DNA of 64,000 nt from Psammoneis japonica. Lineage: Eukaryota. The translations under genes were made by a program, and so were the position numbers. Numbering within the stretch: position 1 is the first letter of the stretch; each line of letters opens with the position of its first letter. Location: contig QPGO01000022.1 in the NCBI GenBank assembly GCA_008632985.1, positions 496,001 through 560,000 on the forward strand, in the 5' to 3' direction. The notes beneath the pieces are model-generated. The model did not search any database, was not told where the DNA came from, and worked only from the letters and a program-made list of their open reading frames with translations. Of the stretch, positions 1-40,009 are shown piece after piece.

Positions 1-3000
1 AACAGTGTGCCTGTCGCTGACTGAGCTTTGTGCTTCGGTTTAATCTTGAAATCTTTGTCTTTGTTCAGTTCGCGTCACTCCATCCTCTAGCAAATCCATC
101 TGCAAACATGGAAGACGACCATTCCTGCTCCTGTCGACCACCAACAGTTCAGATGGACTGTGTTTGGCATCATCTGATGAGAGTGATGAGTCCTTGTGGC
201 CACACATGTGGCCTGTGGTTTTTTCTGTTTTCTCTCTGCCAGTTTTTTTTTTCCAGTGCCTCTGAGCAGTGCCCCCCAAACAATGAAGGTGTGTGTCCAC
301 CCATCACCAGGGCTGTTGGTCCATCGCACAAGCTGCACGTGCCCAGAACCTGCAAATGTCAGACATCAGATTTGTTGCAGTTGCCACACTGCTGTGCTGG
401 AAAAACAGCCATTTTTTGCCAAGCAAAGCTGCCCTTCCTGTCACAAACAATTGGCCACAACTTCCAGGGATGAAATGGTTGCAACAACTGGCACTTGACT
501 GTCAACGTCCCTGGCTGCAGTTGCTGGAGCTCTCCAGGCTGTTGACCTCACACACATGGTTGCAACTGCCCAAAACAGATTCCATGTTTTCTCAAAAGCA
601 AAGCAAGAAGTTGCATCTGTTGCTCAGCTTTGTGGATTCCAAAAATGTCAAGCCCCAGACCATTGACTTGGTCCATCCTTGATGACACACACCGGCAAAC
701 ATGCCAACTTGGTGTTTTCTGGTGCAGCATGATGAGCAGCCTTTTTTCAGCAAAAATGATTGTCGTGTGTTTTGCCAGATGCCTTCCCCCCAGCCCCTTT
801 CTTGCAACCCTCAAAGTTTTCACCACACTGCAATGTAAGATCTGGCTGTCTTGGGTGCAAGTGCTGCAAAAGGTGGCAAAGTTGTGCACAAACTGGGTGT
901 GCAGCCACATGTTGAGGCCAGCTGACTCTCTTCCACCATTGTTTTGCATGGTCCAATTTGTGCCAAGCCAAACTCTCATCTTGCAGGTGTGGACAACAGC
1001 ACGTGCTGATTTAAACAGCTTGGCTGCATGCCTGCAGTTCCCAAATCTGTTGAGATGCAGCACAGAATTTGCACCATTGCCGCCACATTCTGCAGGTTCA
1101 GTGCTTGACACAGGCAAAGGAGAGCCATGCTCTGGCACAATGGACAATCTCACTTGTTTGACCAGAGCTCTTGTGATTTGCACCATGGCCACATCTGCAA
1201 GCCGCGTGCATCCAGGCCAGAATTTCTGTCCAACAGATTGAAAAAAATGGTGGAAAGACAGGGTTTGATGCTGGTGTCTTTCAGGTGCAAAAAAGGGCAT
1301 GTCATGCACAACCAATTTTGTTCTGCTGTGCAAATTCAGCCCTGTGCTTTTGTCTGACAGCCAAATTGTCTGCATTTTGACATCTCTTGTTCTTTTTGTC
1401 AGGTGGGTGAACAAAAGCTTCTGCTTTGCAAGCACATAAAATTTTCCACACAGGCATCAGAAAAATTGCTGAAATTGCAGCCATGCACTGGTTTTTGCTG
1501 CCATTTCTCATTTTTTTTCAACTTGGCTGTTGTTGCCACCAATCTGCAGTGCCATGTTGGGCTTCACATTGGCAAGATCATTGACTTTTTCTTTTCCCAC
1601 ACAACTTGCCTGTCACCTTCTGATGTGCCACCATTTCTCACCAACAAGAAAGCTCCAACACCTGCAGCTGCACTCACATTAATTTGACAACTCTCCTCAT
1701 TGGCTTGGTGTTTGCTCATTGCAGTGGTGTCCCTTGTGCCTCTGTGCTTTGGCCAAACAAACTCTCATCTCTGCTGTGCAACTCACAGCTTCAGCTGCTC
1801 CAGCTGATGATGGCCATGATCCCTTTTGCAATGGCTGTGTTTTGTGAGTCTTGTGGTGGGGCACCTTCAAAAGCACGGACCTTGCACAAGTGGTTCCCTC
1901 ATCTTTCAAAAACATTTTTCTGTCTCCTTTCCTTGCTGCAGAGCCCATGTGCCCTCCAGAAGTTGATGTTGTTGGAGCAGATGACTCAGCAAGTTACAGC
2001 ACTTTTCTGATTGATGATGGCCACAGCAACCTTGCTCCAACCAATCATGAGGGTTTTTGGTGGGGCTGGTGACAACCCCATTTCCAGAGAAGATGGCACA
2101 CAAGCACCATGCATCTTTGTCTCCACTTCAATTTTTTTGTCTTTGTTGATGATCCAGCATTTTTCCCAAGGAAGGGCTCAGTTTCTCAACAAAGCATTGG
2201 GGGCAGTGCACAAAGAAAGCATGCAGGCTTTGCACCACCACATCATGCACAAGCTGTGGTGCCAGTGAAGAAGAGAGACAATGCCACCCACACCCAACAT
2301 TGATGACTTCTCTCTGCTTGATGGTCAGGCACAGAGGCTGTCAAGCACATCACAGGATTTTTGTGGAGATGCAGGGTTGCATTGTTCGTTGTTCTTGCAA
2401 GACTGGTGTCAACCAAGTTGGCCCCAGCTCTTGTTGCGCCACAAAACCTTTTTGTTTTCATTGGCGACAAACAAAGAAAGAGCTCCACTGTGGTTGCAAG
2501 CCCTGTGGACCATTTGGGCCTGTGCCTTGTGCTCTTGATGCTTCAAAAGAGTGGCCTGTGTAGCATGCATGTGTTGACTGGTGACTTGCCAACTTCCACA
2601 GCATGCTCCAGGCACACTGTCAGACAGCTTCTGCTGCACACAGGAGAAACCTCAAATTTTGCAAAGAGAGTGGGGAACAAGTTGCGCAAATGTGTTTGAG
2701 CTTGACTTCTCCTTTGTTTTGCTTGTCTGGCTGGCAACATTCTCAGCCAGGAATGTGGATCTGTTCTCTTGCAAGATCAGTTATGCATCTGGTGCTGAGA
2801 GAGGCACAAATCTGAAAAAAGTGGTTTTTTGTCAACAATGTGCCATCTGACTGTGCTGCAGCAGCAGCCATGCTTGTGCCATCACCATTGCTTGTTGACA
2901 GCCAATCATGTGCTCCAAGTGCAGCAGTGGTCCAACACAAGTGACCAACACTTTGGAGCTGTGGTGTGCAAGTCTGGCTGATGCTTTTTGTTGCAGCTGG

Positions 3001-6000
3001 CAGACACTCTTTCAATGTTGGCGTGTTGTTCACAAAAGGCAGCTCAGCAAGGGCTCTTGATGCGCTGAGTGCAAATTTTCCATCAGCCCTTCATGAGTTT
3101 GATTGACCACCATCAAGAAGCCATCAAGCTGCATGAGCTGCACAACAAACATCATTGCAAATGAAAAGCACAGCTGCTTGAGCTGTTCAACCATCCAACC
3201 TGGATGTTAGAAAGGCTGTTGAAACAAATGCAATGAGCGACTTGCACTTTTCAAAGTTCAAAGTTTTCCCTGGTTGCTGTGGCAGAGGCTCAGGAAAGGA
3301 TGATTGGAGCCACAGACACCATGGCATGTTCAAATTTTAGTGCAGCTTGAGTGGAAGCTCCTGGATGAGTTGTTGCAAGACAGGAGGGCAGATCTTAAAC
3401 AGCCATGCGACAACTTTGGCAAGCACACAGTCATTTTGCTGTCATCTTGCCACTCTCTCATCTGAAAGTGTGTGCCAGGCACCACACATTGACATCAAAT
3501 TCTCACAATGAAGCTTGTTTTTTGGACAAACAACTTGACTTCAGTGGGAGCTTGCAGAAGCACATCTTCAACAAGATGGACACATGGATGTCAGCAAAAG
3601 AGCTCCCAGAGGAGATCAAAGAGATGGCTCTAAGGAAGCCAGCAAGGAAAACAAAACAGCCCGACAGGAAAGTGTCAGAAGGAAGACAACTGAGATGCAA
3701 AGCATGCAGGTTTGCTTGACATCATTGTGCCCATGCAAAGTGCTCAGACAACTTGAAGCTGTTCTTGGTTGTTGCTGCAGCAGCTCTTCAGAGCCCAAGC
3801 TTTGACATGTGGGCTGCCAAAGGCAGCTGATGTGTTAAAAAGGGGAGGAGGACAAGGAAACATGCACAGACAGCAAGCTGTTTGCAAAAGAACTTTGCCT
3901 GACATCGTCTGTGGACTGTGACCAGCTCATGAAGGAAGCTGCTGCCAACAACATTGACAGCTGAGCTGAACTTTATTGGAGGTGCCCACCCCTTCTTCTG
4001 TGCAACAATGGCAACAACCAGGCTGAAGACACTGTGCACTGAGAAGAAGCCAAGCACACAAGTGAGCAGCACCCAAGGGTGCCAGAAATCTGGCTGAATT
4101 TGCAGTGGGTGCAAAGCACACAGAGAGAGGCAAAGGCAAAACTGCAAAGATGAGCCAAGACAGACAAGCAACATGTGGCCAAACATGGAGCAACACCAGC
4201 CATTTGAGTGTCACACCTCCTCAACTTTGGTTGGTGCTTTCAGGAGGAGAGGAAAAAAGGAGGCAGTGCCTTGTGCAGACAAGAAAAAGAGGAAGAGGGA
4301 AGAGAGCAGGAAAGAGCTCTCAAGGAAGAAGGGGATGGGGAGCAGCCAAAAATGATGGCCTGTTGGTGGGAGCTGGCGACAGTGGTGGAAACAACAAGAC
4401 AAACAAGAAGAAGAATGACAAGAGCAAAAAAGCAAAAATGGCACATTGCTGAGGGTGACAAGAAAGACAAGAACAACAACAAACACATGTGCACATGTTG
4501 TTGGAGTTTTTTGGCTTGCAGACTGGCACATGATCAGTCTCGCCAACTCCCAACTCTCATTGTGTGGTTTGCAAACACAGCGCTGATGCTGTTGACCACT
4601 GCTGCCATGTCAACTGGGTGCAGAAGTTAAAAAGTGAGCACAAGACCCACAATCTGAGTTTCAAAGGCAAACTTGCCACATTGTCTGCAACCATCAACAC
4701 ATCTTTCAACTGCAACTTTGTCTGTCCCCCACAAAAACAGCCTCCAACCCCAATGTTGTTCCAACACACTCCTTTGCAATTCATTGGCCTCTTGTGCATC
4801 AAGCATGGGAGGATCACTTGGAACCCATGCCACTCAACATCATTTCAACTGTTTTGTTGATTCCCATGGTCTGCATCATCTGATTTGGCCAACAAATGAT
4901 CATTGTCAGGACAATCCCTCCTCAGACATCCAATCTTGTTGCATTTCCAGCATTTCATCTGCTTCTTGTTGCCCTGTGCAGAACTTGTGCTGTCATGTTT
5001 CCTTTTTGGTCCTGCAGATGCCCAACACCTGCAGTGCCTTCTCAGCTGAATTGGGGCAAATGTGAACCCCCAGTGTGAACTGCAAATTCAGGTCTCAAAA
5101 GACCTCCATTGCCGTTGCTGCTGGTGAATGGCAAATTGTTCCTTTCTTCATTCTGGGTGTCATCAGCATCTTTGCTGAACTCCCATCTTCTTTTTTCTTC
5201 CAGGATGATCCTGCTGCAAGATGTTTCTGCCACCCCAACCATCACACTCACAAAAAAATGGATCACAACAATCTTGGATCACCCCTTTTTCATCTTGACA
5301 AATGAGCGCCAACTGCTTCCAAGCCTTGACAGCCTGGACATGTGGGTTTGTCTTCTCATTTGTGTTGAACAAGATTGACTTGAGAATTTCCAGCAGCACT
5401 GCCATGTCCCACTCCTTTGCAACTCTCGCACCAAGCTCTGTCACTCCTTTGATCTTGGTTGTGCCAAATTCCCTTCTTTTTTGCACAGGGCAGGTGGCTT
5501 CTTCCTTGCAATCAAAGCCTGGGGGACATCTCCAGCTGGCTGCTGCCAAAAGAAACTTGTGTGTGGAATTTGTGCTGAAACAAGAGTGTGCTGGCCAGTG
5601 CATTTGGGGAGTTTGGCCAGATTTGGTGAATGCTGGACAGACCAGATTTCTTTCTTGCACGTAAAAATGCACTGGCAAAGCCCCCAAACACACTGATGGG
5701 CAGACTTTTTGCAGCCAGCCATCAAAATTTGTGCTTGATTTTGGACTTCTGCACTGGGCTTCTGACTCAGAGAACATTCATGCACTGACAAACATCTGGG
5801 CACTTTTGTTGTGCAGATGCCTCAATGATGAAAGGTGACACTGGGGTGCAAAACTTGGCACACCAACTTTGGAGCAAAACTCAGCATGCCAACTTTGGAA
5901 ACAAAAACTCAGCATGCCAGCTTTGGGGCAACTGCAAAACTCAGCAAACCAACTTTGGGATGAAATGGGTGTTGGAGCTTCGTGGCTTGCTGACAGCGTG

Positions 6001-6233
6001 CGCTCAGTCTTGTCATCTTTTGACTCACTCTGTGGCTTGCAAACACATCAACTGATGTCACTGGCTGTTGTCACTGTGTCAACTGGGTGTGGAAGCTAAA
6101 ACGTGAGCTCAGGACCCACAACTCAATCCAACTTGCAAGTGCAAACTTGCCACATTGTCCACAACTGTCAGCGTGTCTTGCACTGCAACTGCTCCATCTG
6201 TCTGTGCTTCAACAACTGCCACTGGACTGACCC
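1..6233. mobile_element. Field of old, heavily mutated transposon relics (mostly LTR-retrotransposon gag/pol-like fragments on the - strand), almost devoid of TpA and CpG
   Basis: Near absence of TA and CG dinucleotides. No coherent gene. 5163-5777(-) gives gag-like text (KIKGVTELGARVAKEWD..LLEILK) also seen at 13874-14338. Segment about 4555-5500 is repeated at 6005-6233 + 13342-14170. Confidence 0.7.
5855..5960. repeat. Short degenerate tandem repeats (AAACTCAGCATGCCAACTTTGG-like); related cluster at about 15765-15835
   Basis: About 4 degenerate 22-30 bp units seen directly. The same motif recurs at 15765-15835, probably subterminal repeats of a relic element. Confidence 0.6.
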
Positions 6234-6509
6234 TGACAGAAAATGAAGGCAAATGGCAAGAATTCAAACAACAACTCCTTGCTGCTGTCTAAACAGCAGA
6301 TGAGTCTCCGCTCAGAGACCGTTGCAGGAGCCGAAAGACGTGCAAGTCGGTGCAATCGGGCCACTGTCATTATTCTTGTGAGCCTTGTGGCTCGAAAGCA
6401 AACTACATCGCGCGTGAACGCGCGGAACTAAAGCACACAAAACTGTGCACGGTAAACTAAACAGCGCGCGACACTTCGCGCGCACCCAAATCCTGTTCAA
6501 ATCCTGTCA
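6234..6509 (-). repeat. 3' LTR of copia-1 (TpA-mutated copy)
   Basis: Aligns without gaps to 13066-13341 with 11 substitutions. Adjacent to the PPT. Confidence 0.97.
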
Positions 6510-9500
6510 CTCCCCAGTTTGCTTGAGGAGCCACAGAAACAGATTCGACTTCGGATGGAATGAAGTTCCAGAACATGAGGGGGCGGAGAAGGTCCCAGAT
6601 TTGGGAGCAACCCCAATGCTTGCTGAGAATGTCAGCAGGGTTGCGGGAGCCTTCGATGAAGTGGAACTCAAGGTGACCAGAGGCAATTGCCTCACGCACA
6701 CGGTGGAACGACAGTGCGGTGTGTCGCTTGTGTAACTTGGAGTGCGGGATGGTGGCACTGTCTACAACCGACTTGTTGTCACCGAACATGTAACTAACGT
6801 TACGGATCGGGACGCCAAGGTGGCGCAGGGTGATGCGCAGGTCGATAATCTGCTCAACACAAGTCCTTGCGGCAACAAATTCAGACCCGCAGGTCGCAGT
6901 CTCCACGGTGGCTTGTTTCTTAGAGAACCAATCAGCCGGGAATTTGTTGAGGAAGTGGAGCATTCCCATGACAGAGCGTCCGGTGAGCATGCAATGGTGC
7001 AAGTTTGCATCGACGCAGTGGGTGGTAGTGACGAACTTGCCAAGGGGCGGTGGAGCGTCCTTCGGGATCATCTCTTCTGCTTCACCACACACGGAATGCA
7101 TCCATTCATAGGCCGGAGCAGGGAGATCCGAACAGTCGGGCTCTTCCATACGAACGCGGAGAGCACCGTGTCGCATCTTGGAGAGGCACCCACAGACGCG
7201 TTTGGCACGATCCAAGTGGCCTTGACGGGGCGCAGCTCGGAAGCTAGAGAGTGACATGACGGCCGTGGTGATGTCAATTCGACCAAGAGACACTGCCCAT
7301 TGGAGTGAACCAACAAGGGACTGGAACTTGTGCATGCCATCGGGTCCCAGCAGTTCGGAAGTGTCCAGTTCGGGGTGGTCACCCTTCTCCAGAGGTGACA
7401 GGGCGTTGGTGGCAGGTTTCTCCCCAAACAGTCGGGTGCAGCTGTCGACCATGCGCTCGATGTACTTGCGCGGAGACAGGCTCAAGGTTCCGTTGGGTTC
7501 CCGGGAAAAGTCGCAACCCAGATGGAACTCAATGGGTCCCGTGCCCTTGAGCTTGAACTTGTGCTTTTCCGTGAGAGTGTCGACGAAAGATTGAGGGTCC
7601 TTCATGGCAATGGCGAGGTCATCCACATAAACGGCAATGCATTCACAGTGGTCGCCGTTCCTGCGCATCCAAATGTTGGGTTCGGCGCGGCAGGGGAAGA
7701 AGCCTTCAGCTCGCAGGCAGTCGGCGAAGCGCTCGTGCCAGCGGAGACTGGAGCTGCGCAGTCCATGCAGTGCCTTGTGGATGACAAGGATGTGTCCTTC
7801 GAGTTTGCCGAACTCGGGTCCAGCTACAATGTAAAGCTTCTCCTTGGTGGTGGCTTCAAGGTGGGCATTGCCAATGTCGGTGGCCCATGTCTCCAACTCG
7901 TTGAGTTCGGCCAGGAAAATCATCAGCCGAAGGCCACGGAGGGAGACTGCTCCGGAGCAGACACTGTCGACAGGTACGTCCGTGAGGTGCCCGTCGGCTA
8001 CGAGTCGTGCCTTGTGGCGACCGTCGTGTTTCACATCGTACACTGGGTGCACTCGAATCTTCTTGTGTCCCGCAGGAGGAGTGGAAGACTTGAAGGGCCC
8101 GCAGTCATGGAAGACTTCACATTCGTCGAGTTGGTCCATCTCGAGATTGGTTGCGTCTCCCCACTTGCGGTTGCCGTTGCGTTCGTCCAGTGACATGGCG
8201 TGTTTGTAGTTCCGGGGAACTTCGCATCCACACTTGCAGCGGGGTGCAGTGCGGAAGGAGCGAAGCTTGGCTTGGTTGGCCATGCGAAATGGCTTCTTTT
8301 GGCGCCTCGCGATGGTGCGGAACCGCTTCCAGCCATCCGTGTCGAGGAGTCCGTTCTCTCGTGCATAGATGGCACAGGTGACGGGGTCGTCCCTGGCGAT
8401 GATGGCAAGAGGCTCGGACGTGATCTCCCCACTTTCCCATTCAAGCATGATGTTGTAGCTGGAGCCTTTCCAGGTTGGGTCGTGAGGCTTCAGAGGTCCT
8501 TCGTGTGACACGATGCGTCGAAATTTCCAAACAGTGGTGTCTTCGTCTTCTTGCTCAATGTGATTCATGATGTCATTGCAGGCAAGGACTTCCTCGTATT
8601 CGTCATTGTTGACAGAGCAGACGAACTTAGTGAGCTCGGGATTGCCGTTCACTTTCCATTCGTGGTCTTCGACGGCCTTGACGATGCGAGCTCTGTGGCG
8701 TTGTCCGTCCTCTTGTGGCTGCATGAGGAAGGTACGTCCAATGATGTCTTGCGGATCGAAAACTGGCATCTTGGGTGTCCTGATCTCCCCATCAGGAGAG
8801 TCGACGGGGTTGTCGTCATGGCGAGATTTGATGATGGGTTCAGGTGGCTCCCCATCAGGAGGATCAAGACGCAGGTTTCGAACGGCAGGATCGGGGGTGG
8901 CGGAGCGGACGTTGGACCGGCAGAGGATCTTCTGAGTCTCATCAGATAGAATCTTGAAGGTCATCTGGTGGCCGACGTGCTCAGCAATGCCAACGAAGCG
9001 TCCACGCAACTCACGGGATTCAGACGGCCAATCGGAGTCATCGAGGTGGAAGCACACGGGTTCCCACCAGTGAAAGCGAAGCAATGGGCTGATGTCCGGG
9101 GTGGAGCCAGTGAGAGTCTCGAGGGGCGTGCGCCAGTGGAGACGTGGGGACGCTGCATGGTTGAGCATGAAGCACACGCACATGAGCGCCAGCAGCCATG
9201 TGTGGGCGGGCGAACCAAAACGATCCATGACAGTGTTCGCCATGCGCTTCACGGTCTGGTGTCGACACTCGGCAAAGTTTTGGTGTTGCTGGTGAGGCTC
9301 ACTTTGCCAGCTAGAGATGAAGAGGGCGCGCAGGATCCCGAGCACTTTGTTGCTGATCTCAACTTGAGCACGGTCGCTAATGAGTTTGGATGGGGCACCA
9401 CGTGCACGGATCTGATCCTCGAGTGTGTTGACAAACTCTTTGTCCATCTCAGTGCCGCAGACGTCAGTGATGGTAGACTCGGTGCCAACAAACAGTTGGG

Positions 9501-12126
9501 CGCTGGTGCAACCAGAGTCGACGGCCGGGGTGTCGGCACAAACGGTGTCAGTGGCGATGGGCTCGTTGCGGCGGTGCACATTAAGGGCGGGGTTGGGTGA
9601 TTTGTAGGCCTTGCGAAGGTGTGTGCCGGCGGGCATGCGGGCGTGCTGCGTGGTGCAGTCAAAAGTACGACGGACCGCATCGGTGGGTGGGAAGCCAAAG
9701 CAAGGCCGAAGAGACTCGAAGGGGGGGTCCTTGGGCTGTACAGTGCGCTCCGGAGGTGGAACGTCATCGCCCTGGGGGCCAATCGCATGCAGATGACACT
9801 CGCAGAACACGTCGTCGTTCGGAATGAGGTGATCATCGAGGGCGGACGCGTGATCGGCAGACAAGGAAGCGGACAAGATGGTCTCGTTGACAACGACACG
9901 ATGACGGCAGTTGCCGCATTCGTCAAACAGGTTGGCAGTGGGATCGTCCTGCAGGTCAGAGATCGCGTCGTACCACTGGTCGTCGTCAGTGACAGAGTGA
10001 TCGAGGACGGAAGGGTCCCATGTGTCATCACCGGTGAGGATGACATGGGGCAGGGTGTCCCATTCGGCGTCAGTGCAAGGTCGCATGGTGACACAAGGCA
10101 GGCCAGCCTTGATGTCAATGGGGATGACACAGCCATCAGGAGTGGCAATGCGTTGCAAGCCGTTGGGCACCTTGACAGAGCGATCGTTGACATCCTGTTT
10201 GCACCATTCGAGCTGGCCACAGGAATGGATGGTCTTGCCCTTTCCCGTGTGTGCGCACTGATGGAGGATGGCGATGACGGGACCACGCTGGGTCTCAATG
10301 ACGGCACCAGCGGTGACAATGGGGATGTCCACCAATTGATGATCGTCAATGCCCTGAACGTCGACTTGGCGAGAGGTGCGTGCAATGACGCGAACGTCGT
10401 CGCCAGCAATGCCGCCATTGGCCCCACGATCGACTAGAGCACCAGTGCGTGTGGATCGATGAGCAGAGGCAGAGCAAATGACATTGTGGTTGTTGACGCG
10501 GCGGCAAGTGCGGCCGTTGAGTTCTGTGTCATCTGCAGAAGCTGGCAGGGTAGAGGAAGCGGCGGATGGCCCCGGTCGACTGGCATTGGGGGCTTGGTTA
10601 GGAGACAACAGACGTTGCAGATCACCAGGTGGCAGTGGCTTGCACTTGGTGAGGTGCGCCAGGATGGGATTATCCGAAGTGGCATCCACATGTGGGGCGG
10701 AGTCACCAGAGTCAGCAGGAGTCGTGTTGGACAAGTTGACATCACCGTCACTCCCAAGGCGTTGGTCGTGAAGGTTGGCCGTAACAGACTCATGGCAGTT
10801 GTTGGCTCGCGGGTTGCGGGGAGGTGGACAAGAATGCTCAAGGATGATCGCCTTGGAGGAATCGGGCAACGAATCCCAGAGCCATTGGTGGTCGGGAGGG
10901 AGACGTCTCCATTGGACACCGGCGAGGCTGGGACCGCGGGTGCAGGCAGCATTGGCTTGAAGGACGTCAACGTCGCTGTCAATGTCGTAGAACACATCGT
11001 CGGACGGTTCCTCGGAGCAGACGTCGTGTGCGCACATGGCGCGTCGGGGAGCTCGAGGTGTCGTCTTGGGTTGAAATGTGCTGTCGCACTGAGCTGCCGC
11101 GGAGAGGAGCAAGCCACAGTGTTGATCGCATGTGAGGCTCTTGCCACTCTGCGCACGATGCTGATCAGCTTGGTTCTTGACAGCACGGAGTTCCTCGACA
11201 GGGTGCACGGCATTCTCGAGCATGACGCGCTTCTGTCCTTCAGAGAAGTGGTCACTGGCCGGGATGAGTGCCTCGCACTTGCGCAACTGATCTTGCCAAT
11301 GAAGGATGAACCCATGGGTCGGACCTTTCCAAGTGCCATCACCAAGACGCGCGGTGGTGAGGTGCGTGAGCAAGGTGGAGGACTCGACAGATGCGCGGGT
11401 GGAGGTGAGCGCGTGCTCAGACAAGGCGCGGCAGACGGTCTGTGCATCAGAAGACCCCACATTTTCGCGAATGAGAGCCTTGCCCTTGTCGGTGAGAAGG
11501 ATGCGTTCGAAGACGGCGAACATGCACTTTTGCTGTTCAGCAAAGAGCAGTTTGTCTTCGGGGCTGGTCGGTTTGTACGACGAGTCTAGAGTGCACTCGA
11601 CGTCTTGGGCACGGGCTTGTGCCACAAGTGAGGTGTGCCAAGTGTGCCACTGCTTGTCGGATTTGAGAGCCGTGAAAGCGGTGGGATCATGCTTGATGCC
11701 TCGCTTGAAGTCCCGCACCGGGTCGCGTGCCTTGGTCGGGTTGGTGACATGTGGAGGTGCAAGGGGTGAGCTGCCGATGGACACAGAAGACATGCAGTCG
11801 GGGCTGAGGCGGTGGGCAAGGAACTCGTCATGCGTGAACAAAGAGGAGTCATTGGCAACGTCAAGACCTTTGTGTGCTTTAACAATGTACAGACTGACTG
11901 GTGCTGCCAACATGTTCTTACAACCACGGGGCAAAGGGATCACATTAGCGCCATTGTCGCGCTCAAGCAAGTCGATTTGGGACGGCATGAACGTGAACAG
12001 TTCCTGACATGAGTCCGTGCCGTCTTGGGCCAAAGCCAAACGAAGAGGACTCCCAGCACCTTGGGCAAGCACGGTTCCAACCACGTGCTCGAAACCATCG
12101 GTTTGTTGCTGATGAGTGAGAACCAT
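6457..12126 (-). CDS. Copia Gag-Pol polyprotein (gag, aspartic protease, integrase, reverse transcriptase, RNase H); open but hypermutated
   Basis: Motifs LVDRGANGG (protease), IATDTV/LISDRAQ/NFAE (integrase DDE), KARLVADG, AVYVDD (RT), CVDANL..TGRS and NPADILSK (RNase H), in copia domain order. Likely start MVLTHQQ at 12126. Many expected Tyr appear as Cys/His. Confidence 0.93.
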   Translation of the reverse strand: MVLTHQQQTDGFEHVVGTVLAQGAGSPLRLALAQDGTDSCQELFTFMPSQIDLLERDNGANVIPLPRGCKNMLAAPVSLYIVKAHKGLDVANDSSLFTHDEFLAHRLSPDCMSSVSIGSSPLAPPHVTNPTKARDPVRDFKRGIKHDPTAFTALKSDKQWHTWHTSLVAQARAQDVECTLDSSYKPTSPEDKLLFAEQQKCMFAVFERILLTDKGKALIRENVGSSDAQTVCRALSEHALTSTRASVESSTLLTHLTTARLGDGTWKGPTHGFILHWQDQLRKCEALIPASDHFSEGQKRVMLENAVHPVEELRAVKNQADQHRAQSGKSLTCDQHCGLLLSAAAQCDSTFQPKTTPRAPRRAMCAHDVCSEEPSDDVFYDIDSDVDVLQANAACTRGPSLAGVQWRRLPPDHQWLWDSLPDSSKAIILEHSCPPPRNPRANNCHESVTANLHDQRLGSDGDVNLSNTTPADSGDSAPHVDATSDNPILAHLTKCKPLPPGDLQRLLSPNQAPNASRPGPSAASSTLPASADDTELNGRTCRRVNNHNVICSASAHRSTRTGALVDRGANGGIAGDDVRVIARTSRQVDVQGIDDHQLVDIPIVTAGAVIETQRGPVIAILHQCAHTGKGKTIHSCGQLEWCKQDVNDRSVKVPNGLQRIATPDGCVIPIDIKAGLPCVTMRPCTDAEWDTLPHVILTGDDTWDPSVLDHSVTDDDQWYDAISDLQDDPTANLFDECGNCRHRVVVNETILSASLSADHASALDDHLIPNDDVFCECHLHAIGPQGDDVPPPERTVQPKDPPFESLRPCFGFPPTDAVRRTFDCTTQHARMPAGTHLRKAYKSPNPALNVHRRNEPIATDTVCADTPAVDSGCTSAQLFVGTESTITDVCGTEMDKEFVNTLEDQIRARGAPSKLISDRAQVEISNKVLGILRALFISSWQSEPHQQHQNFAECRHQTVKRMANTVMDRFGSPAHTWLLALMCVCFMLNHAASPRLHWRTPLETLTGSTPDISPLLRFHWWEPVCFHLDDSDWPSESRELRGRFVGIAEHVGHQMTFKILSDETQKILCRSNVRSATPDPAVRNLRLDPPDGEPPEPIIKSRHDDNPVDSPDGEIRTPKMPVFDPQDIIGRTFLMQPQEDGQRHRARIVKAVEDHEWKVNGNPELTKFVCSVNNDEYEEVLACNDIMNHIEQEDEDTTVWKFRRIVSHEGPLKPHDPTWKGSSYNIMLEWESGEITSEPLAIIARDDPVTCAIYARENGLLDTDGWKRFRTIARRQKKPFRMANQAKLRSFRTAPRCKCGCEVPRNYKHAMSLDERNGNRKWGDATNLEMDQLDECEVFHDCGPFKSSTPPAGHKKIRVHPVYDVKHDGRHKARLVADGHLTDVPVDSVCSGAVSLRGLRLMIFLAELNELETWATDIGNAHLEATTKEKLYIVAGPEFGKLEGHILVIHKALHGLRSSSLRWHERFADCLRAEGFFPCRAEPNIWMRRNGDHCECIAVYVDDLAIAMKDPQSFVDTLTEKHKFKLKGTGPIEFHLGCDFSREPNGTLSLSPRKYIERMVDSCTRLFGEKPATNALSPLEKGDHPELDTSELLGPDGMHKFQSLVGSLQWAVSLGRIDITTAVMSLSSFRAAPRQGHLDRAKRVCGCLSKMRHGALRVRMEEPDCSDLPAPAYEWMHSVCGEAEEMIPKDAPPPLGKFVTTTHCVDANLHHCMLTGRSVMGMLHFLNKFPADWFSKKQATVETATCGSEFVAARTCVEQIIDLRITLRHLGVPIRNVSYMFGDNKSVVDSATIPHSKLHKRHTALSFHRVREAIASGHLEFHFIEGSRNPADILSKHWGCSQIWDLLRPLMFWNFIPSEVESVSVAPQANWGVTGFEQDLGAREVSRAV

Positions 12127-13050
12127 GGTGGACAAAATGGTGTCAGGACAATCAATTCTGGTTGGGAAGCGAAGGTGGACTCGAAACTTGGGTGAGAACA
12201 GACTTGACTTGAAATGGACTTGACTTGAAATCTTGAACTGTCTTAAAATCAGAAGTCGCCGGGCTTTGTCATCCCGTTCGTTGTTGAGTGCTAAACTTCC
12301 CATCCGGTCCGCAGAGTTGTGCCGGCACGTCCGAACCCGCAGCTGGCGGCGCTTTGGGTTGCTTGCGAGCGGAGCAGCGGGTTGTAAACCCCTGCAGGCA
12401 AGCTGACTAGAGGTGGACAAGACCCCCGAACCGTTCTTGTTTTACATCGGTTGGATTTCCCGATCAGGCTGGCCAGTTGACGCAGGCGTCAGGCGCTGTG
12501 GACGAACGAACAAACGCGGGAAAGCACCCTCGCCCCAACGCAGGCTGCAATCACGGCCACTTGCTCTCACAGTCGTCCTCGTGGACCTAGCAGAACTGTG
12601 GAGCACCAGTAGTCCGGGGTAGATCAGGTACAATGGACTCGGTGTGCTTGTAGAGTGGTGGCAAAACCGCAGTCCGAAGAGTGGGTACAGGTTCTTGGCC
12701 GTGAAGATATGTATATATACACATGTCTTCAGCGACGAAGATCCTTGAATATGTAGGGTTCTTGACCGTTAACCGATGAATGGGTATATCAAGGGATGAG
12801 GATCAAGGATAGACTTGGATATGACCGTTGAATGTATGTCTTCAGCGATCAAAGGTAGTATAATCAATCCAGATATCCAGCGGTAAGGAGACTTGACGGT
12901 GACGTTAACTTCCTGCCGATGCCCTGGTATTGAATGCGCGTAGACTTGCCGATGTATGTAGAATATATACGGAGGTCCACGTAGAATTAAAAATAGCGTC
13001 GTTGGTAAATCAACGACGACGATGGCGGTTGCTCAATGGGTTGACAATGA

Positions 13051-13065
13051 GCAAGACTGTTAATC
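13051..13065 (-). other. Putative primer-binding site of copia-1 (complementary to a tRNA-Asn(GUU) anticodon arm)
   Basis: The + strand reads GCAAGA-CTGTTAA-TC and abuts the 5' LTR. There is no TGG as required for a tRNA 3'-CCA primer. Confidence 0.55.
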
Positions 13066-13341
13066 TGACAGAAAATGAAGGCAAATGGCAAGAATTCAAA
13101 CAATAACTCCTTACTGCTGTCTAAATAGCAGATGAGTCTCCGCTCAGAGACCGTTACAGGAGCCGAAAGACGTGTAAGTCGGTATAATCGGGCTACTGTT
13201 ATTATTCTTGTGAGCCTTGTGGCTCGAAAGCAAACTACATCGCGCGTGAACGCGCGGAACTAAAGCACACAAAACTGTGCACGGTAAACTAAACAGCGCG
13301 CGATACTTCGCGCGCACCTAAATCCTGTTCAAATCCTGTCA
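13066..13341 (-). repeat. 5' LTR of copia-1 (TpA-intact copy)
   Basis: Pair of 6234-6509. Retains 17 TpA sites. Confidence 0.97.
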
Positions 13342-16300
13342 GACCCCAATGTTCCAACACACTCCTTTGCACAACAAGCCATCAATCAATTGACCTCATG
13401 TGCATCAAGCATGGGAGGATGACACTGCTTGGAAATCATGCCACCTGACACCACATCAACTTGTCCATCAACTCCCGTCATTCATCCGCATCATTGGATG
13501 CTGCCAACAGATGATTGCTGTCAGGAAAATCCCTTCTTGTGTGCCCAACTTTGTTGCACTTCCAGCATGAAAGCTTCTTCTTGTCATTCTGTGCAAAACT
13601 TGTGCCTTCAGGTCTTTTTTTGGTCCCGCACATGCTCAACACCTGCAACACCTCCTTGGCTGAATTGGGCCACATGTCAGCCTCCAATGTGAGCTGCCCC
13701 AATGCAGGTCTTTCAAGACATGCCAACAATCATTGGCACCTTCCATTGGCATCACCGCTGGTGACCTGTTCCTCTCTTTGCTCTGGGTGTCATCAACATC
13801 CTTGTTGAGCCCATCTTCTTTCTTGGCAAACTCCTCTTCTGGGACAATCCTGCCACAGGATGTTTCCACCATTTCAGCCATGCCCACAATCAGATTGCAA
13901 CAGTCTAAAGTGCTTCTCCTTCATCTTCTTGACAAATGAGCACCAGCTGTTTCCAGTCCATGCCTTCCTGGACATGTGGGTTTGTCTTCTCATTTGTGCC
14001 CAAACAAGATCAACTTGAGAGTGCTCAGCAGCCACCACGTCCCACTCCTTTGTGACTCTTGCAAGTTCTGCTGCTCCTTCAAGCTTGTGACAAATGACGG
14101 CCTTTGCACATTGCCCCACAATTGCATCCAATGCCCTCCCTTTCTGTGTTTTGCAGATCATGCTCTGCCTCACATGGTGATTGCATGTTTTGCCCCAGAT
14201 GGCCTCATCTTTCTCTGATGCTGTGGTGTCTCTTGACAGACAATCTGGCTCTCCTGACATGCTCTCCCACCTCAGAGAGGCACCAACTCCTGCATCTCTG
14301 GCCCAATCATTCTTCCAACATGTGTGTGCTTCACTCAAAGTCTTTCAAGAAATTGCCCTGGTGCATGTTCACAATCTGGAATTTTGGTCAAGGGGCACAT
14401 GCTCAAACACAGAGAATCTTGAATCCTGTTGCGGCAAATGCCTGGGAGAAGTCTGATGACAGAGCCAAGGCACCCCAAGCCTGACATGGAGAGGGTGTGT
14501 TTTTTGCCATGGCATCTAAGCAGCCCCCCTCAGCAAGTGGCAAGGCTGAGGCTGAGAGATGATTTCAAGGGCAGTTTTGCACACAGAGTTGCTCAACGGT
14601 GCTTTTTTGTTGAGTCCCTCATGCCTTCAAGATCAAACTGCACCTGCACCTGTTGCAGGTTGGAATGACAAAGCATGACAGCCGGCCTGAAAACCTCTGA
14701 CGGACGCTCATTTTGAGCTGTTGCCATCACAATGCCAGGCACAGTTTGTTTTTGTTGGGCATTGCTGCAGAACTGTAGATTGGATGGTTTGCAACATTTC
14801 AAAAGCATCTGACACAGTGTTTTGTGAAACAATTGACAAAAGTGATGACCCGCCAGGAATCCTCTAAGTTGTGCTCAAGAGTGCTGTGGAAAAAGATTTT
14901 GAGATTGATGAGAGTGAGATTGAAGCACTTTGTTTGCACTTGTCCATGGTGATTCCAAATGTCAAGTTCAACAAAGGGCATTTCAAAAAGTCATTGCCAG
15001 AGAGGGAGGATCAACAACAAACTTTTCAAGCAACAATGTGGCCAACAACTTGACAACAGCAGAAAAGAAGATCTTTCTTCTTTGAGCAAATTTTTTGGAC
15101 CAAGGCAATGATCCTTGGCATCAATTTTAAAACCAATGCTGCTGCACTGTTCTCAGTGTTCATTTGGCCAATGTTGCTGGACAACTCCTCATTGCCTGCA
15201 GCCTCTGCATTGAAAGTGGCAGCATCTTTGCTGCCATTTGCAGCTTCCCATTCCATTTTCAATTTGGTGGGCTCATCTCCATTGTTTTGCACGGGCACCA
15301 CATTTCCGTCATGCCAAACAATTGGAACAGAACAGGACAACAGATTTCACTGAAACTCAACATGTGGCACAACGGCTCCATGTGGGACATCAACCTCCAT
15401 GCCACCCCCCTCAGATCGTAAAAGGAGCACATCCTTTTGATGGCATGCTTCATGACAAATCCCATGAATCACGCCACTGCCAGTTGGGCCGGGGGCACAC
15501 CGACAATCTTGATGGCACCCTTTTCATAAAAGCCATTTGCTCCTTCTTGCAAAGGATCCAGGAAACCCTTCTCATTGCTCTCACTGTCATTTTGGAGACA
15601 GAAGCACATTTTGCCCAATGATGTTGTTGCGACCAGTGTTGTCATGGCCATGGTCTTGCCCTCATCATTGGCTTGAAACAGACAGGCAGCAAGAGCATAA
15701 AAGGCAGCTCCTCAACTTGCCAAATCATCCACTGAGTGAGGCTTGTCCACCTTTGCCATGGGTGAAACTCAGCATGCCAAATTTGGGGCAAAAGTTGGCA
15801 CACCAACTTTGGGGCAAACCTCAGCATGCAAACTTTTTTGGTGCAAAAGTTGGCAGGGTCTGCGGGAAATCGTGTTTTCAAGCAAAAAACAGAGAATCTC
15901 TGTGAGTTTCGACCATTTGCAACACCAACAGTGCAGCCGCACGTGCTTTTTCCATGTGATGAGCTCGCGCATTTTTGACACAACTTTGACACAAATCAAA
16001 GTTGTGCCACAGTTTCAAAAATGCACACCCGGGTGTTTTTAGAATTCCTGCGAGACTTCCAGTGCAAAATCCACACAAAAAAACATGACCCGGATGTGCA
16101 ATTTGAAAGTTGTGTCACACATTTTGAAAAATGTGCATGCGGGTCCTTTTGCATGTAGAAGCCTGGTGCATTCCCACACAACACAAAAAGTGGGACATTT
16201 TCAATTGTGCACATCCGGGTCTTTGCGCAGTTTTTCAGTCTCACACAGTTTTTTGCATCAAAAGTTGTGTCCAAAAATGTCTTTTCTGTGAAGTGGTGTC

Positions 16301-17300
16301 TGTGACAAATTTGTCTTGTCTGACAGATTTCATGCTGGCAGGCATGATTCACATCAATTTTGACACACACGCAGCCAGGTGGCAAAAATGGTGATTTCCC
16401 GCAGATTGCTTCCTGGCCTGCATTTTTGGATTCCTGATGGCTTCCCAGCCTTCTTCTTTGACAATGACTCCACTCCTTTGAGTGTTGTGCCACAACTTTT
16501 TGGCTTCTGTGTTGCAGTTTCATGGCTTGCCTGCTGGATGCTCAGTCTCACACTGACTCCAAACTCACTGTGTGGCTTGCAAACACACCTCTTAAATGCT
16601 GCCAAACACCATTGCCATGTCAACCGGGTGCAAAAGCCAAAAATTGAGCACAAGACCTGCGGCTCAACCCAAGTTGCGAGCGTGAATGCACTGCGTCATC
16701 CAAAATCATCAGCATGTCTTGCACTGTGACATTGTCTCTCTGTCCTGCAAAAACTGCTTCTGATCCTGATGTTCCAACACTGGTGGCTCCTCATGACCAG
16801 GTGGAAGAGGGGTGACAGGGCAAGCTGAAGAGGACATGGCATCTCTCTGGCCAAGGTGAGAAGGACATTCCCAGCAGAGTGTTGGTGGCTGCCCCCCACT
16901 CTTGTCCTTTTTCATTTGCTGCACTTGGCACATTTGTGTGCTTTTCAGTGGGGTGCATTGTTGCAACAAGCTCCACATTGCAAACAGAAAGTGGCAGCAA
17001 GGGCATCTTTGACAGGAAGCAATGGAGCCTTGAAAAAATGCACCTCAAACTGTTGATGCCACTTTGGTGCTTGCCTGGCTTCTTGGCTCTTGGCTTCTCA
17101 AAAAAGCAGCTGAAGAGAGAGAACACAAGAAGCAGAGCCAACAATTTTGTTCGGTCATGGCAAGTCTCAGCAGCCCCACACTCAACACTTGGATGTGCAG
17201 GCATGGTGGGCAGCAAGTCTTTGTGATGTGCTTGAGTTGACAAGGACAGAGAGAGGAGGTGAGTGGAGGGCAGGATGGACAGCACCAAAGAATCTGCACC
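13342..17300. mobile_element. Old TpA/CpG-depleted transposon relics (continuation of the relic interrupted by copia-1, plus others)
   Basis: 13342-13420 continues the unit seen intact at 4740-4830. Gag-like text at 13874-14338(-). Inverted CCCGGATGTGCA-type motifs at 16085-16221. A third copy of the unit lies at about 16540-16790. Confidence 0.7.
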
Positions 17301-32467: not shown

Positions 32468-32669
32468 GCAGCAATAACAACACTTCTATTACACCATAAT
32501 GTCATCATATTTTATCCCTGTAGACCAATGTAGACTGCCCTTACCGGCATTGTGCCATTGCTCTCATCGCACCGTAGGTCATCTTTGGACCGCCGAGTTT
32601 TTTGAGAAGTAGTTGGAAGTGCTGTGTGTGAATTGACTAATTTGATTCAAATCTCAAATGAAAATGACT

Positions 32670-32830: not shown

Positions 32831-32923
32831 CCACACTGTTTGACGACCTGCCGTTGATTTCGGTCGATTTGCGGTACATTCCGTTGCGATAACCACTCTC
32901 CTGAAGCCTCACAGTACAGTAAA

Positions 32924-40003: not shown

Positions 40004-40009
40004 CTCCCT

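Follow-up and report, generated by a model that had tools for sequence, protein, structure and literature searches.

To our knowledge, the classical genome-defence mutators, i.e., RIP, APOBEC and the decay of 5-methylcytosine (5mC), all act on cytosine, and we know of sequence-specific deamination of DNA adenine mainly from laboratory-evolved TadA. Apart from a single preprint of 2026 on the alga Bigelowiella natans, no natural mutator aimed at chromosomal A:T pairs was found in the literature. In that preprint, two viral insertions acquired 231 de novo mutations, of which 230 were A-to-G or T-to-C changes, all of them at TpA (Mettrop et al., bioRxiv 10.64898/2026.01.13.699255). According to its accessible text, the targets are integrated giant-virus and virophage DNA, followed by mutation accumulation; the TpA rate, obtained with Illumina sequencing, is ~1000-fold above background, and reverse-transcriptase and DDE domains are over-represented among TpA-poor coding sequences (10.64898/2026.01.13.699255). 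The same text names an ADAT2 homologue as candidate enzyme, attributes DNA activity to ADAT2 of amphioxus and trypanosomes, and gives a 5' U as the preference of ADAR (10.64898/2026.01.13.699255).

The window discussed here, i.e., the whole stretch of 64,000 nucleotides that was analysed, displays this TpA signature as well, now in a distantly related algal lineage, on ordinary LTR retrotransposons and at near saturation. An earlier note on this DNA had not recognised it as a described system. By now, the signature has been reported de novo in B. natans (10.64898/2026.01.13.699255); thus, this kind of TpA hypermutation has already been described, by a single report (2026) on an alga unrelated to the present host. 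No literature report of a TpA signature in diatoms or in LTR pairs was found. Probably, a DNA-level mutator turns TpA into TpG or CpA in integrated chromosomal transposons and other repeats, by a process of the same kind as that in B. natans. With a second lineage, what was an oddity of one species becomes a candidate for a widespread defence.

Hypermutated elements and depleted blocks

The element copia-1 lies on the minus strand between two identical, unstranded copies of the 5-bp target-site duplication (TSD) GACCC (6229-6233 and 13342-13346). It carries the hallmarks of Ty1/copia elements, i.e., RVT_2 (PF07727, E = 3.9e-26 in Pfam), LTRs of 276 bp each with TG...CA ends, the 5-bp TSD and a polypurine tract before the 3' LTR. 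The Ty1/copia LTR retrotransposons of diatoms, known as the 'CoDi' lineages, have the same features and are the closest known elements. No integrase or gag domain was detected in copia-1 with Pfam. The stop-to-stop ORF of copia-1 (6457-12441, minus strand, 1994 aa) aligns over its full length to relatives of ~1900 aa (59-71% identity), which are abundant in aquatic metagenomes.

The two LTRs of copia-1 differ at exactly 11 sites, without indels. At these sites, the left LTR (6234-6509, minus strand) has CA (8) or TG (3), and the right LTR (13066-13341, minus strand) has TA throughout. The right copy thus retains 17 of 17 TpA and the left one 6, i.e., 11 of 17 ancestral TpA were lost, while the 20 CpG in each copy are all unaltered. 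These counts agree in full with the earlier note, which had listed 11 sites, all TA vs. CA/TG, in a 276-bp pair with 11 of 17 TpA changed and intact CpGs. The note had also taken the TA-bearing LTR for the 5' LTR, and this assignment stands, because the minus strand encodes the ORF and GGGGAG, a purine run, adjoins the left LTR in the sense orientation. If 11 transitions are placed randomly on the 276 LTR positions, of which 46 are positions where CA/TG becomes TA, the probability that all of them fall on those 46 is 2.8e-9. The polarity of 11:0 has a p-value of 0.001, and the probability of finding 0 of 17 TpA changed in the 5' LTR at the rate of the other LTR is 2e-8. Ordered by 5' neighbour, A-to-G changes affected 11/34 adenines in TpA, 0/47 in ApA, 0/33 in CpA and 0/32 in GpA.

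In the ORF, the observed/expected ratio (o/e) of TpA is 0.13-0.25, and depletion is strongest at the 5' end (0.13 at 11-12 kb vs. 0.25 at 6-7 kb). The step from depleted to normal TpA is found at ~12375-12625, and the 5' leader (12376-13065, minus strand) is spared, with a TpA density like that of host genes. The TA-bearing part has a TpA o/e of 0.68, which is similar to that of host genes and not >1. Despite its TA loss, copia-1 retains CpG at an o/e of 0.7-1.0; its G+C content is 0.55-0.58 vs. 0.47-0.50 around it. Since TA loss erases TAA and TAG stops, the 'intact' ORF of 1994 aa is no sign of a young active copy; copia-1 is a mutational relic that owes its long open frame largely to the removal of stops. 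The spared 5' LTR and leader form a 1-kb island that is flanked on both sides by mutated DNA. Such an island would also result if a fresh copy had served as donor in a gene conversion, and the LTR differences of copia-1 would then not be strictly in situ.

In copia-2, also on the minus strand and with the TSD CATCG at 39775-39779 and 47469-47473, the 3' LTR (39780-40003), which abuts host genes, is spared, and the 5' LTR (47245-47468) is hypermutated: 13 of its 14 TpA are now CA (8) or TG (5), and 4 CpG transitions are added. Thus, 13 of the 17 differences in this pair are TA vs. CA/TG with one polarity, and the other 4 are CpG transitions. In the internal region (40004-47244), the frames are broken and match RVT_2, SH3_retrovirus and, weakly, gag_pre-integrs; Tyr is at 0-0.9% and the TpA o/e is 0.06-0.22. 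A-to-G changes in the copia-2 LTRs hit 13/28 adenines in TpA and 0/28 in ApA; pooled over both pairs, the figures are 24/62 in TpA, 0/75 in ApA, 0/65 in GpA and 1/60 in CpA, the latter a CpG-type site. There are no transversions inside either LTR pair, and the spared LTR shows no TpA change in either copia-1 (0/17) or copia-2 (0/14). With two LTR pairs between intact TSDs, and CA as well as TG present, the claim that the changes were post-insertional and on both strands has been borne out.

The signature extends beyond these two elements. A third hypermutated element (27900-32400, plus strand), with ORFs that contain a 3'-5' exonuclease domain, has a TpA o/e of 0.07-0.20, and at the 28 Tyr of its only homolog it has 10 Cys, 9 His and 2 Tyr, with none reversed. 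At the edge of a segmental duplication (49087-49414, unstranded; partner at 32855-33183), there is spill-over: all 8 TA-to-CA/TG changes are in the copy that adjoins a depleted block, and the remaining 1.4 kb of the duplication has only 1 difference of the reverse type. The block right of copia-2 (47469-49250, unstranded) is nearly saturated and poor in TA and CpG. The old repeat block into which copia-1 was inserted (1-6228 and, of like composition, 13347-17375, both unstranded) is also near saturation, with o/e values of 0.01-0.09 for TpA, 0.05-0.19 for CpG and 1.7-2.1 for CA and TG (1-6 kb and 14-17 kb: TpA 0.01-0.09, CA and TG each 1.65-2.06); it gives way to normal DNA at ~17375-17500. 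Overall, the TpA o/e is 0.01-0.25 in five blocks vs. 0.43-0.78 in gene regions, and it steps at the block edges within 125-250 bp. In the younger elements, TpA is below a B. natans-type cut-off, but CA and TG are each at 1.1-1.8. Between the repeat copies at 4499-5457 and 5970-6233 plus 13347-14087, CA<->TG accounts for 36 of 105 adjacent double differences, with 8 in the next class. This predominance of CA<->TG marks the composition of the old repeats as derived rather than native.

Direction, context and rate of change

Whether CA/TG might be ancestral was assessed at 36 columns with at least 80% conservation of Tyr among 60 relatives of the copia-1 ORF. At these columns, copia-1 has 22 Cys (TAY to TGY), 6 His (TAY to CAY) and 5 Tyr; at other conserved columns, it retained His at 27/28, Phe at 30/31 and Trp at 22/24 (Fisher p = 4e-19). 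The reverse replacement, with Cys or His in the relatives and Tyr in copia-1, was not seen at conserved columns. The Tyr content of the copia-1 ORF is 0.75% vs. 3.85% in relatives, with values of 2.9-4.5% in 120 of 120 relatives, and the TpA o/e in 80 related metagenomic loci is 0.41-1.01 (median 0.72). In the host gene PreP, used as a control, Tyr was kept at 9/9 positions. Other copies of the family do not polarise the copia-1 LTR sites, as none of the matches listed lies in an LTR. A majority rule within the family is ambiguous, because most copies have TG/CA at some sites where the copia-1 ORF has TA, e.g., 6796 and 7150. Together, the alignments to relatives show TA to be the ancestral state; the change runs from TpA to CpA/TpG, is post-insertional, affects both strands and is aimed at repeats. 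The ancestral-state check proposed in the earlier note thus came out for TA (Cys/His at 28 of 36 Tyr columns, TpA-normal composition in 80 related elements), and its statement that RIP and 5mC deamination run the opposite way fits with the one-way loss of Tyr and with 0 of 63 CpA cytosines altered in the two LTR pairs.

Which adenine of a TA is mutated is set by its 3' neighbour and not by the transcribed strand, with a preference of TAT > TAC > TAG >> TAA. At 32 polarised sites, the base 3' of the mutated A was T in 11, C in 13, G in 7 and A in 1, and that of the spared A was A in 16, G in 3, C in 8 and T in 5. Where a choice between pyrimidine and purine was offered, the pyrimidine was taken 26 times and the purine 5 times (LTR sites, duplication sites and Tyr codons pooled; p = 2e-4). 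Relative to normal density, surviving TAs range from 0.48 for TTAA down to 0.00 for ATAT. In the Tyr codons of copia-1, sense-strand A-to-G changes prevail by 22 vs. 6 (p = 0.004); the 3'-neighbour rule accounts for the greater part of this bias, though perhaps not for the whole of it, and codons with a 3' pyrimidine at both options split 10:4 in a hand count. The rule can equally well be expressed for the T, by its 5' neighbour, as for the A, by its 3' neighbour.

In the copia-1 LTR pair, 0 changes at 242 non-TA positions vs. 1.04 hits per TA site give a rate ratio of at least 84. The TpA mutation rate is at least ~80-fold above background, and probably several hundred-fold.

Proposed mechanism and alternative explanations

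The mutator favored here, to which the directly observed signature, direction, post-integration timing, restriction to repeat domains and context rule all belong, would target the A of 5'-TA-3' in either strand, replacing its A:T pair by G:C. It would act in kilobase-scale domains with sharp edges and leave neighbouring genes alone. TA loss would outpace CpG decay, so that young insertions would lose most TAs before other substitutions show, and old repeats would end up nearly free of TA and CG and rich in CA/TG. In chemical terms, a TadA/ADAT2-type deaminase may turn adenine in DNA into hypoxanthine, a step to which we give somewhat less than an even chance. What attracts such a deaminase might be the silenced condition of a domain, through heterochromatin, DNA methylation or small RNA, rather than duplication as such, and the enzyme may serve in genome defence, much as RIP does in fungi, but with the chemistry reversed and G+C enriched as a result. 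More tentatively, and on balance doubtfully, diatoms could carry a heritable, chromatin-domain-guided defence in which the adenine of T-A-Y is deaminated in duplex DNA, as a mirror of RIP; it would be homologous to the Bigelowiella system, hence old in the SAR supergroup, and would rely on a natural DNA adenine deaminase with sequence specificity.

Similar changes could arise without a deaminase if a modified base at the palindromic TpA of silenced DNA, e.g., a 5-hydroxymethyluracil/base-J-type thymine, or N6-methyladenine with subsequent deamination, pairs wrongly during replication, with T-to-C or A-to-G as the result. The palindromic target with both strands affected, the choice of strand by local context, as for an enzyme reading duplex DNA, and the domain-wide action, which suits an epigenetic mark, are all compatible with this explanation, and in dinoflagellates, 5-hydroxymethyluracil is enriched at TpA and TpC. 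Nothing relevant on hydroxymethyluracil at TpA in diatoms was found among the papers listed, and the context rule does not discriminate, as it fits a reading of T or of A alike; we consider mispairing of a modified base unlikely. Modification might also have misled the sequencing itself, if true TA (and CG) were misread as CA/TG by native-DNA long reads, and both palindromic steps do appear turned into CA/TG in the old repeats. However, copia-1 combines its TA loss with retained CpG (see above), TA-to-CG double changes, some of which should result from conflicting strand calls, are absent from 24 LTR sites and 36 Tyr columns, and the identical signature of B. natans was obtained by Illumina sequencing of mutation-accumulation lines (10.64898/2026.01.13.699255). 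Furthermore, contigs from run X1, one of four sequencing runs from one sample that is possibly the assembly's own source (library type of the runs and platform of the assembly are not on record), cover the TA-free flanks in pieces of 155-462 bp, each with 0-8 deviating letters, at word depths of ~32-81 in the eight flank pieces listed for this run, which suggests accurate reads. An artefact is therefore unlikely, with a very slight chance in our estimate; the concern is reduced, not closed.

The retrotransposon RNA (A-to-I) or single-stranded cDNA might have been deaminated before integration, as by APOBEC3, with the LTR asymmetry reflecting the order of strand synthesis. The layout of copia-1, with exactly the 5' LTR and leader spared and the ORF and 3' LTR mutated, is what a model of minus-strand exposure, known from the HIV/APOBEC3 literature, expects, and the Tyr codons are biased to sense-strand A-to-G. 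However, RNA edits would leave the LTRs identical, and edits of minus-strand cDNA predict sense T-to-C, whereas sense A-to-G is seen in 8 of 11 LTR and 22 of 28 Tyr changes. In addition, the polarity is opposite in copia-2 (5' LTR mutated, 3' LTR spared), depletion in the copia-1 ORF peaks at the 5' and not the 3' end, and non-retroelement DNA is affected as well (duplication edge, old repeats, third element). As the sole cause, pre-integration editing is refuted by this evidence on strand, LTR polarity, ORF gradient and non-retroelement DNA, and we hold it to be highly improbable. Error-prone repair synthesis of the Pol eta type (WA-to-WG), which the earlier note had put forward as a mechanism, and GC-biased gene conversion in heterochromatin both yield A:T-to-G:C changes, and Pol eta has a TA/AA hotspot. 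The WA motif is not supported by the ApA adenines, of which 0/47 and 0/28, together 0/75, were changed vs. 11/34 and 13/28 in TpA, and GC-biased gene conversion has no dinucleotide specificity and could not clear 93% of the TAs with all other A:T pairs intact; either process is even less probable than editing before integration. Finally, two LTRs alone leave the direction undetermined, and CpA-to-TpA is the textbook signature of RIP; the element could then be natively poor in TA, with CA/TG ancestral and C-to-T changes of a RIP-like or 5mC type at CpA in the TA-bearing LTR. This is the least credible explanation of all: conserved Tyr was replaced by Cys/His and never the reverse, Tyr and TpA contents are normal in relatives, the TA-bearing part is not enriched in TpA above expectation, G+C was gained in the blocks, as in copia-1, and one LTR of each pair is untouched.

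Implications and comparison with known systems

The LTR pairs are usable as internal clocks, the domain edges are sharp enough for comparison with methylation or histone maps, and the preference T-A-T > T-A-C > T-A-G >> T-A-A can be tested on candidate deaminases. Loss of TpA distorts the dating of transposable elements by LTR divergence, conceals transposons from homology searches and lifts local G+C, and depleted blocks mimic long open reading frames because TAA and TAG vanish. A natural duplex-DNA adenine deaminase, if true, would be of interest to the base-editing field.

As far as the accessible text of the preprint goes, the B. natans process has in common with the present one that changes are near-exclusively A-to-G/T-to-C, at TpA only and on both strands, that they occur solely in foreign or selfish DNA, where the rate exceeds the background by orders of magnitude, that they leave TpA-poor, CpA- and TpG-rich clusters of several kb, and that they are all-or-none, there in some lines and here in one LTR per pair. 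The host there is a chlorarachniophyte (Rhizaria), whereas it is a diatom or a close relative of diatoms (Stramenopila) here, and viral insertions are replaced by LTR retrotransposons and unclassified repeats. TpA depletion is far deeper here (o/e of 0.01-0.25 vs. a Rho of 0.45 in the B. natans NCLDV region) and is accompanied by CpG decay in old repeats. De novo events were recorded there, and standing sequence differences only are available here, where LTR pairs with TSDs place the changes after integration. The 3'-neighbour rule was seen here, and no mention of it was found in the accessible text of the preprint.

APOBEC3 and ADAR resemble the present process in that retroelements are hypermutated in the manner of a deaminase, with a preference for the 5' neighbour. 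However, they act before integration on RNA or single-stranded cDNA and on one strand, which leaves identical LTRs or G-to-A changes, whereas here both strands of integrated DNA are affected, including non-retroelement DNA. TadA, ADAT2-ADAT3 and the TadA-derived adenine base editors share the A-to-I chemistry with the 5' U/T before the target. The natural substrate context of TadA is U-A-C-G, which resembles the T-A-Y preference. The natural enzymes act on tRNA, and activity on DNA comes from engineered TadA and, according to the accessible text of the preprint, ADAT2.

RIP in ascomycete fungi is likewise a dinucleotide-specific transition mutator that ruins chromosomal transposons, can leak into adjacent unique DNA and leaves compositionally aberrant blocks. 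It requires a RID-type DNA methyltransferase and the sexual cycle. However, RIP runs C-to-T at CpA, thereby making TpA and AT-rich DNA, whereas here TpA is destroyed and G+C is enriched. RIP marks both duplicate copies, but in each pair only one LTR is affected here, and RIP makes stop codons, whereas here TAA and TAG are removed and reading frames are opened.

LTR pairs and other duplicated sequences

The LTRs of copia-1, a Ty1/copia element on the minus strand, were recovered by a repeat search of the window as a direct repeat pair at 6233-6516 and 13065-13348. Alignment places the LTRs proper, each 276 bp long, starting with TGACAG and ending with CTGTCA, at 6234-6509 and 13066-13341, within an identical 5-bp target duplication, GACCC (6229-6233 and 13342-13346). 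They differ at 11 positions, without indels, and in all cases TA in the right LTR faces CA (8) or TG (3) in the left one; the right LTR contains 17 TpA steps and the left one 6, while none of the 20 CpG steps present in each differs. Every detail of these differences described in the earlier note is thus upheld. The sole long frame of the element, of 1994 codons and with an RVT_2 match (E = 3.9e-26), lies on the minus strand (6457-12441), and a GGGGAG purine run adjoins the left LTR in the sense orientation. Because of this frame and purine run, the right, TA-bearing copy is the 5' LTR, as was claimed before.

The probability that 11 random transitions would all land on the 46 CA/TG positions that yield TA is 2.8e-9. 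When the adenines of the copia-1 LTR are sorted by their 5' neighbor on either strand, 11 of 34 are changed in TpA, and none in ApA (0/47), CpA (0/33), or GpA (0/32). In the mutated LTR, there were 1.04 changes per TA site vs. none at 242 non-TA positions, which puts the rate ratio at no less than 84 (95% bound). In the spared LTR, no TA was changed (P = 2e-8 if both LTRs shared one rate); the response is all-or-none, with one partner devoid of any change. The spared island of copia-1 covers ~1 kb (12.4-13.34 kb) and is flanked on both sides by mutated DNA. It might be due to protection of the LTR promoter in an active state, to patchy events at the kb scale, or to gene conversion from a fresh copy, of which the genome has many.

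The pattern is replicated in copia-2, a second such element, also on the minus strand, with LTRs at 39780-40003 and 47245-47468 and target duplication CATCG. Its LTRs show 17 differences, i.e., 13 one-way differences with TA in the left vs. CA or TG in the right LTR, plus four CpG transitions. Here, 13 of 14 TAs were changed, and it is the 5' LTR that carries the mutations; the spared 3' LTR adjoins host genes. With CpG changes at 0 of 20 sites in copia-1 and at four in the copia-2 LTR pair, the change at TpA is faster than CpG decay. Since both LTR pairs differ after integration, the post-insertional nature of the changes proposed earlier is confirmed. Within copia-2, a 116-bp tandem duplication (42046-42277; 96% identical) was also noted.

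Sequences of other kinds are affected as well. A third, unclassified element on the plus strand (27892-32467) contains ORFs of 486, 807, and 270 codons and a DNA_pol_A_exo1 3'-5' exonuclease domain. Its only homolog in a collection of 5.8 billion proteins is a protein of 1097 aa with 57% identity, encoded on a 5.5-kb contig; opposite 28 aligned tyrosines of this homolog, the element has 10 cysteines, 9 histidines, and 2 tyrosines. In a 1.7-kb segmental duplication (32855-34576 and 49087-50814; 97.5% identical, with an RRM-domain ORF in each copy), eight changes of TA to CA or TG are all found in the copy that adjoins a TpA-depleted block, within its first 330 bp, and further inside there is one difference of the reverse type. 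This pair also shows 14 CpG transitions, in both directions. The old repeat that hosts the copia-1 insertion (1-6228 and 13347-17375) provides a copy pair in which 36 of 105 adjacent double differences are CA vs. TG, the next class numbering 8. Such doubles are expected if a palindromic step that was originally TA or CG was resolved independently to CA or TG in each copy; judged from this copy pair, the CA/TG richness of the old repeat is acquired and not native.

Direction of the change

Two LTRs alone leave the ancestral state undecided, and CpA to TpA is the classic RIP change; therefore, outgroups were sought. Copies of the copia-1 family are extremely abundant in the sample that was sequenced. 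Summed word depth was 50,000-196,000 over the element vs. 50-1,100 in its flanks (largest run, X1; window 6002-13349), and since this depth is far above that of the flanks, the family amounts to the order of a thousand copy-equivalents. The copies vary by 295 transitions vs. 32 transversions in this run. Among the 40 variable places listed (295 more exist), none of which lies in an LTR, many are TA vs. CA/TG, in both senses relative to the window copy. At others, the family has CG and the window copy CA or TG, with CG in most copies at 13 of the 40; ordinary CpG decay is also present in the window copy of copia-1. Because the copies mutated independently and TG/CA may descend from either TA or CG, majority rule across about a thousand or more copy-equivalents is a confounded polarizer.

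A protein search with the copia-1 ORF yielded 1181 relatives at E ≤ 0.001; among the best 120 of these (59-71% identity, plus one at 45%), tyrosine content is 3.85%, with a lowest value of 2.86%, vs. 0.75% in copia-1, and cysteine content is 0.95% vs. 3.26%. When 60 relatives of more than 1700 aa were aligned with it, 750 columns were at least 80% conserved, and copia-1 departs from 90 of them; 22 of these departures are Tyr to Cys and six Tyr to His, with none in the opposite direction. Tyrosine is retained at only 5 of 36 conserved columns, the 28 changed codons being TGY or CAY, vs. 27/28 for His, 30/31 for Phe, 22/24 for Trp, and 5/6 for Cys (tyrosine loss against other residues, Fisher p = 4e-19). 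At the DNA level, TpA observed/expected (o/e) ratios in related metagenome loci range from 0.41 to 1.01 (median 0.72; 80 of 463 confirmed loci), resembling the spared 5' part of copia-1 (0.68), unlike its ORF. In the PreP ORF, a host gene used as a control, all nine conserved tyrosines are kept. The best named relatives of PreP, 62-71% identical, all belong to diatoms or derive from them (Attheya, 69%; Odontella, 67%; Cylindrotheca, Nitzschia, and Thalassiosirales), which makes the host a diatom or a near relative among the ochrophytes, itself absent from the protein set searched. The ancestral state is thus TA, with CA/TG derived: conserved tyrosines were lost to cysteine and histidine, the DNA relatives are TpA-normal, and host PreP keeps its conserved tyrosines. 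The direction claimed earlier is thereby sustained, the normal tyrosine and TpA contents of the relatives giving no sign of an ancestral CA/TG.

None of the 80 metagenome loci kept (of 463 confirmed) was TA-depleted, but one of the two search patterns holds a tyrosine and could miss mutated copies, and this count is weak evidence as a guide to the spread of the process. Five metagenome copia loci (L028, L017, L002, L007, and L035) are strongly depleted in CpG (o/e 0.10-0.24) and have raised CA/TG with only mildly low TpA (0.41-0.57), as if methylation decay of the usual kind had occurred and the TpA process had not.

Depleted domains and sequence context

A dinucleotide profile of the window, taken in 1-kb steps, revealed a pattern far larger than the LTR pair, which makes up only a little of it. 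Gene regions (18-28, 32-40, and 49-64 kb) have TpA o/e of 0.43-0.78 and CpG o/e of about 1. TpA o/e is 0.13-0.25 in the copia-1 ORF (6-12 kb), 0.07-0.20 in the block at 28-32 kb, 0.06-0.22 in that at 40-48 kb, and 0.01-0.09 in the blocks at 1-6, 14-17, and 48-49 kb, where CpG o/e is 0.05-0.36 and those of CA and of TG are 1.65-2.06. The depleted sequence is complex and devoid of microsatellite structure, and its edges are sharp, within 125-250 bp (~12375-12625, inside copia-1; 17375-17500; 27900; 32400-32500; 40100; 49250-49400). CpG is lost along with TpA in the oldest repeats (1-6228, 13347-17375, and 47469-49250; o/e 0.05-0.36) and is kept in copia-1 (0.73-1.00) and copia-2 (0.70-1.13). Together with the CG places at which the copia-1 copy has CA or TG, this points to methylation of cytosines in these very domains, with a slower decay. 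Two local peculiarities were observed: at one domain boundary, 125 bp (17625-17749) contain 24 CA but only 2 TG steps and are perhaps a strand-asymmetric simple repeat, and an otherwise normal gene region contains a tandem array of a 75-bp unit (35524-36050; six overlapping 150-nt copies reported, 63-100% identical).

Tyrosine makes up 0-0.9% of all fifteen translated ORFs of depleted blocks beyond copia-1 vs. 1.6-4.1% of eight host ORFs. Of 14 ORFs submitted to Pfam (E ≤ 0.1), five came from the old repeat; four of these five had no match and one had a weak match to DUF4769 (E = 0.022), below the cut-off of that family. The loss of TA also removes TAA and TAG, and the depleted blocks carry many long open frames, on both strands and in more than one frame (6457-12441; e.g., 9249-11589). 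As stops are lost in this way, the 1994-aa ORF of copia-1 is no sign of an active copy. Such blocks would mislead gene finders, as well as any attempt to recognize active transposons by an "intact ORF".

The window is covered by four public runs from one study and one sample. Contigs from the largest run over the TA-free flanks contain 0-8 other letters per piece of 155-462 bp; the eight flank pieces that were listed have a word depth of ~32-81. We read these flanks as accurately sequenced, from a sample that may be the assembly's own source and a library whose type is not on record.

At 32 polarized non-coding sites, the base 3' to the changed adenine is T (11), C (13), G (7), or A (1), and the base 3' to the unchanged adenine of the opposite strand is A (16), G (3), C (8), or T (5). 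Where a pyrimidine competed with a purine at the 3' side, the pyrimidine was taken 14:3 in non-coding DNA and 12:2 in tyrosine codons (26:5 pooled, p = 2e-4). A second test compared the density of surviving TA in depleted and normal DNA by flanking bases. Survival relative to normal was 0.48 for TTAA, 0.36 for A/G, 0.24 for G/G, 0.11 for C/C, and 0.03 for C/T, and 0 of 87 expected-type ATAT sites remained. Both tests agree on the order TAT > TAC > TAG >> TAA. This 3'-neighbor rule accounts for most of the sense-strand bias at tyrosine codons (22:6); where both options were pyrimidines, the split was 10:4 by hand count, which is not significant. Double changes of TA to CG were found neither among the LTR sites nor in the tyrosine columns.

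Mechanism and relation to a known system

The process acts after integration, on both strands of the duplex, converts A:T to G:C specifically at TpA, and is confined to repeat domains. Editing of RNA or cDNA would fit the shape of copia-1, where the 5' LTR and leader are spared, but four observations speak against it: the strand of the changes, the opposite LTR polarity of copia-2, the lack of a 5'-to-3' gradient in the window profile, and the change in targets that are not retroelements. The earlier argument against RNA editing therefore holds, and exposure during reverse transcription was likewise set aside, as the gradient it implies is absent. RIP runs in the opposite direction, as noted before and as follows from ancestral TA, and was discarded. 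Synthesis by a Pol eta-type polymerase, a candidate in the earlier note, does not fit its WA motif, as 0 of 75 ApA adenines were changed. GC-biased gene conversion was set aside as a cause, and so was the idea that the copia family is TpA-poor by nature, through its codon usage or composition.

The favored chemistry would be adenine deamination by a TadA/ADAT2-like enzyme, a tentative choice that has somewhat less than an even chance of being correct. TadA acts on tRNA in the context U-A-C-G, which recalls the T-A-Y preference in the window. Its chief competitor as a mechanism, a route via a modified base (a 5hmU- or J-like T, or 6mA), seems unlikely. The putative deaminase, or whichever activity is responsible, may be guided by a chromatin or silencing signal; this is favored over homology sensing, because the changes follow domains, extend ~300 bp into the unique DNA next to them, and leave one of two duplicates untouched.

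The phenomenon is genuine and striking, and the earlier note read it essentially right, except that the signature is not without precedent: the same kind of process is described in a 2026 preprint on Bigelowiella natans, and the observation is thus not categorically new. In that work, 231 of 302 new single-nucleotide mutations in mutation-accumulation lines occurred in one integrated giant-virus and one virophage region, and 230 of these 231 were A-to-G/T-to-C, all at TpA (Mettrop et al., bioRxiv 10.64898/2026.01.13.699255). The rate was ~1000 times background and the mutations were seen in some lines only; 124 TpA-poor, CpA+TpG-rich clusters were reported, TpA-poor coding sequences were enriched in reverse-transcriptase and DDE domains, and an ADAT2 homolog was proposed as the enzyme (10.64898/2026.01.13.699255). 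The main text of the preprint contains no mention of diatom, stramenopile, retrotransposon, or LTR (10.64898/2026.01.13.699255), and a literature search, with subscription journals and preprint supplements outside its scope, found no other report of this signature in diatoms or elsewhere. Compared with the B. natans system, the process in the window operates in a different eukaryotic supergroup, on LTR retrotransposons, and to a much greater depth. Furthermore, the LTR pairs of the window demonstrate action after integration, and the 3'-neighbor rule seen here does not appear in the sections of the preprint examined.
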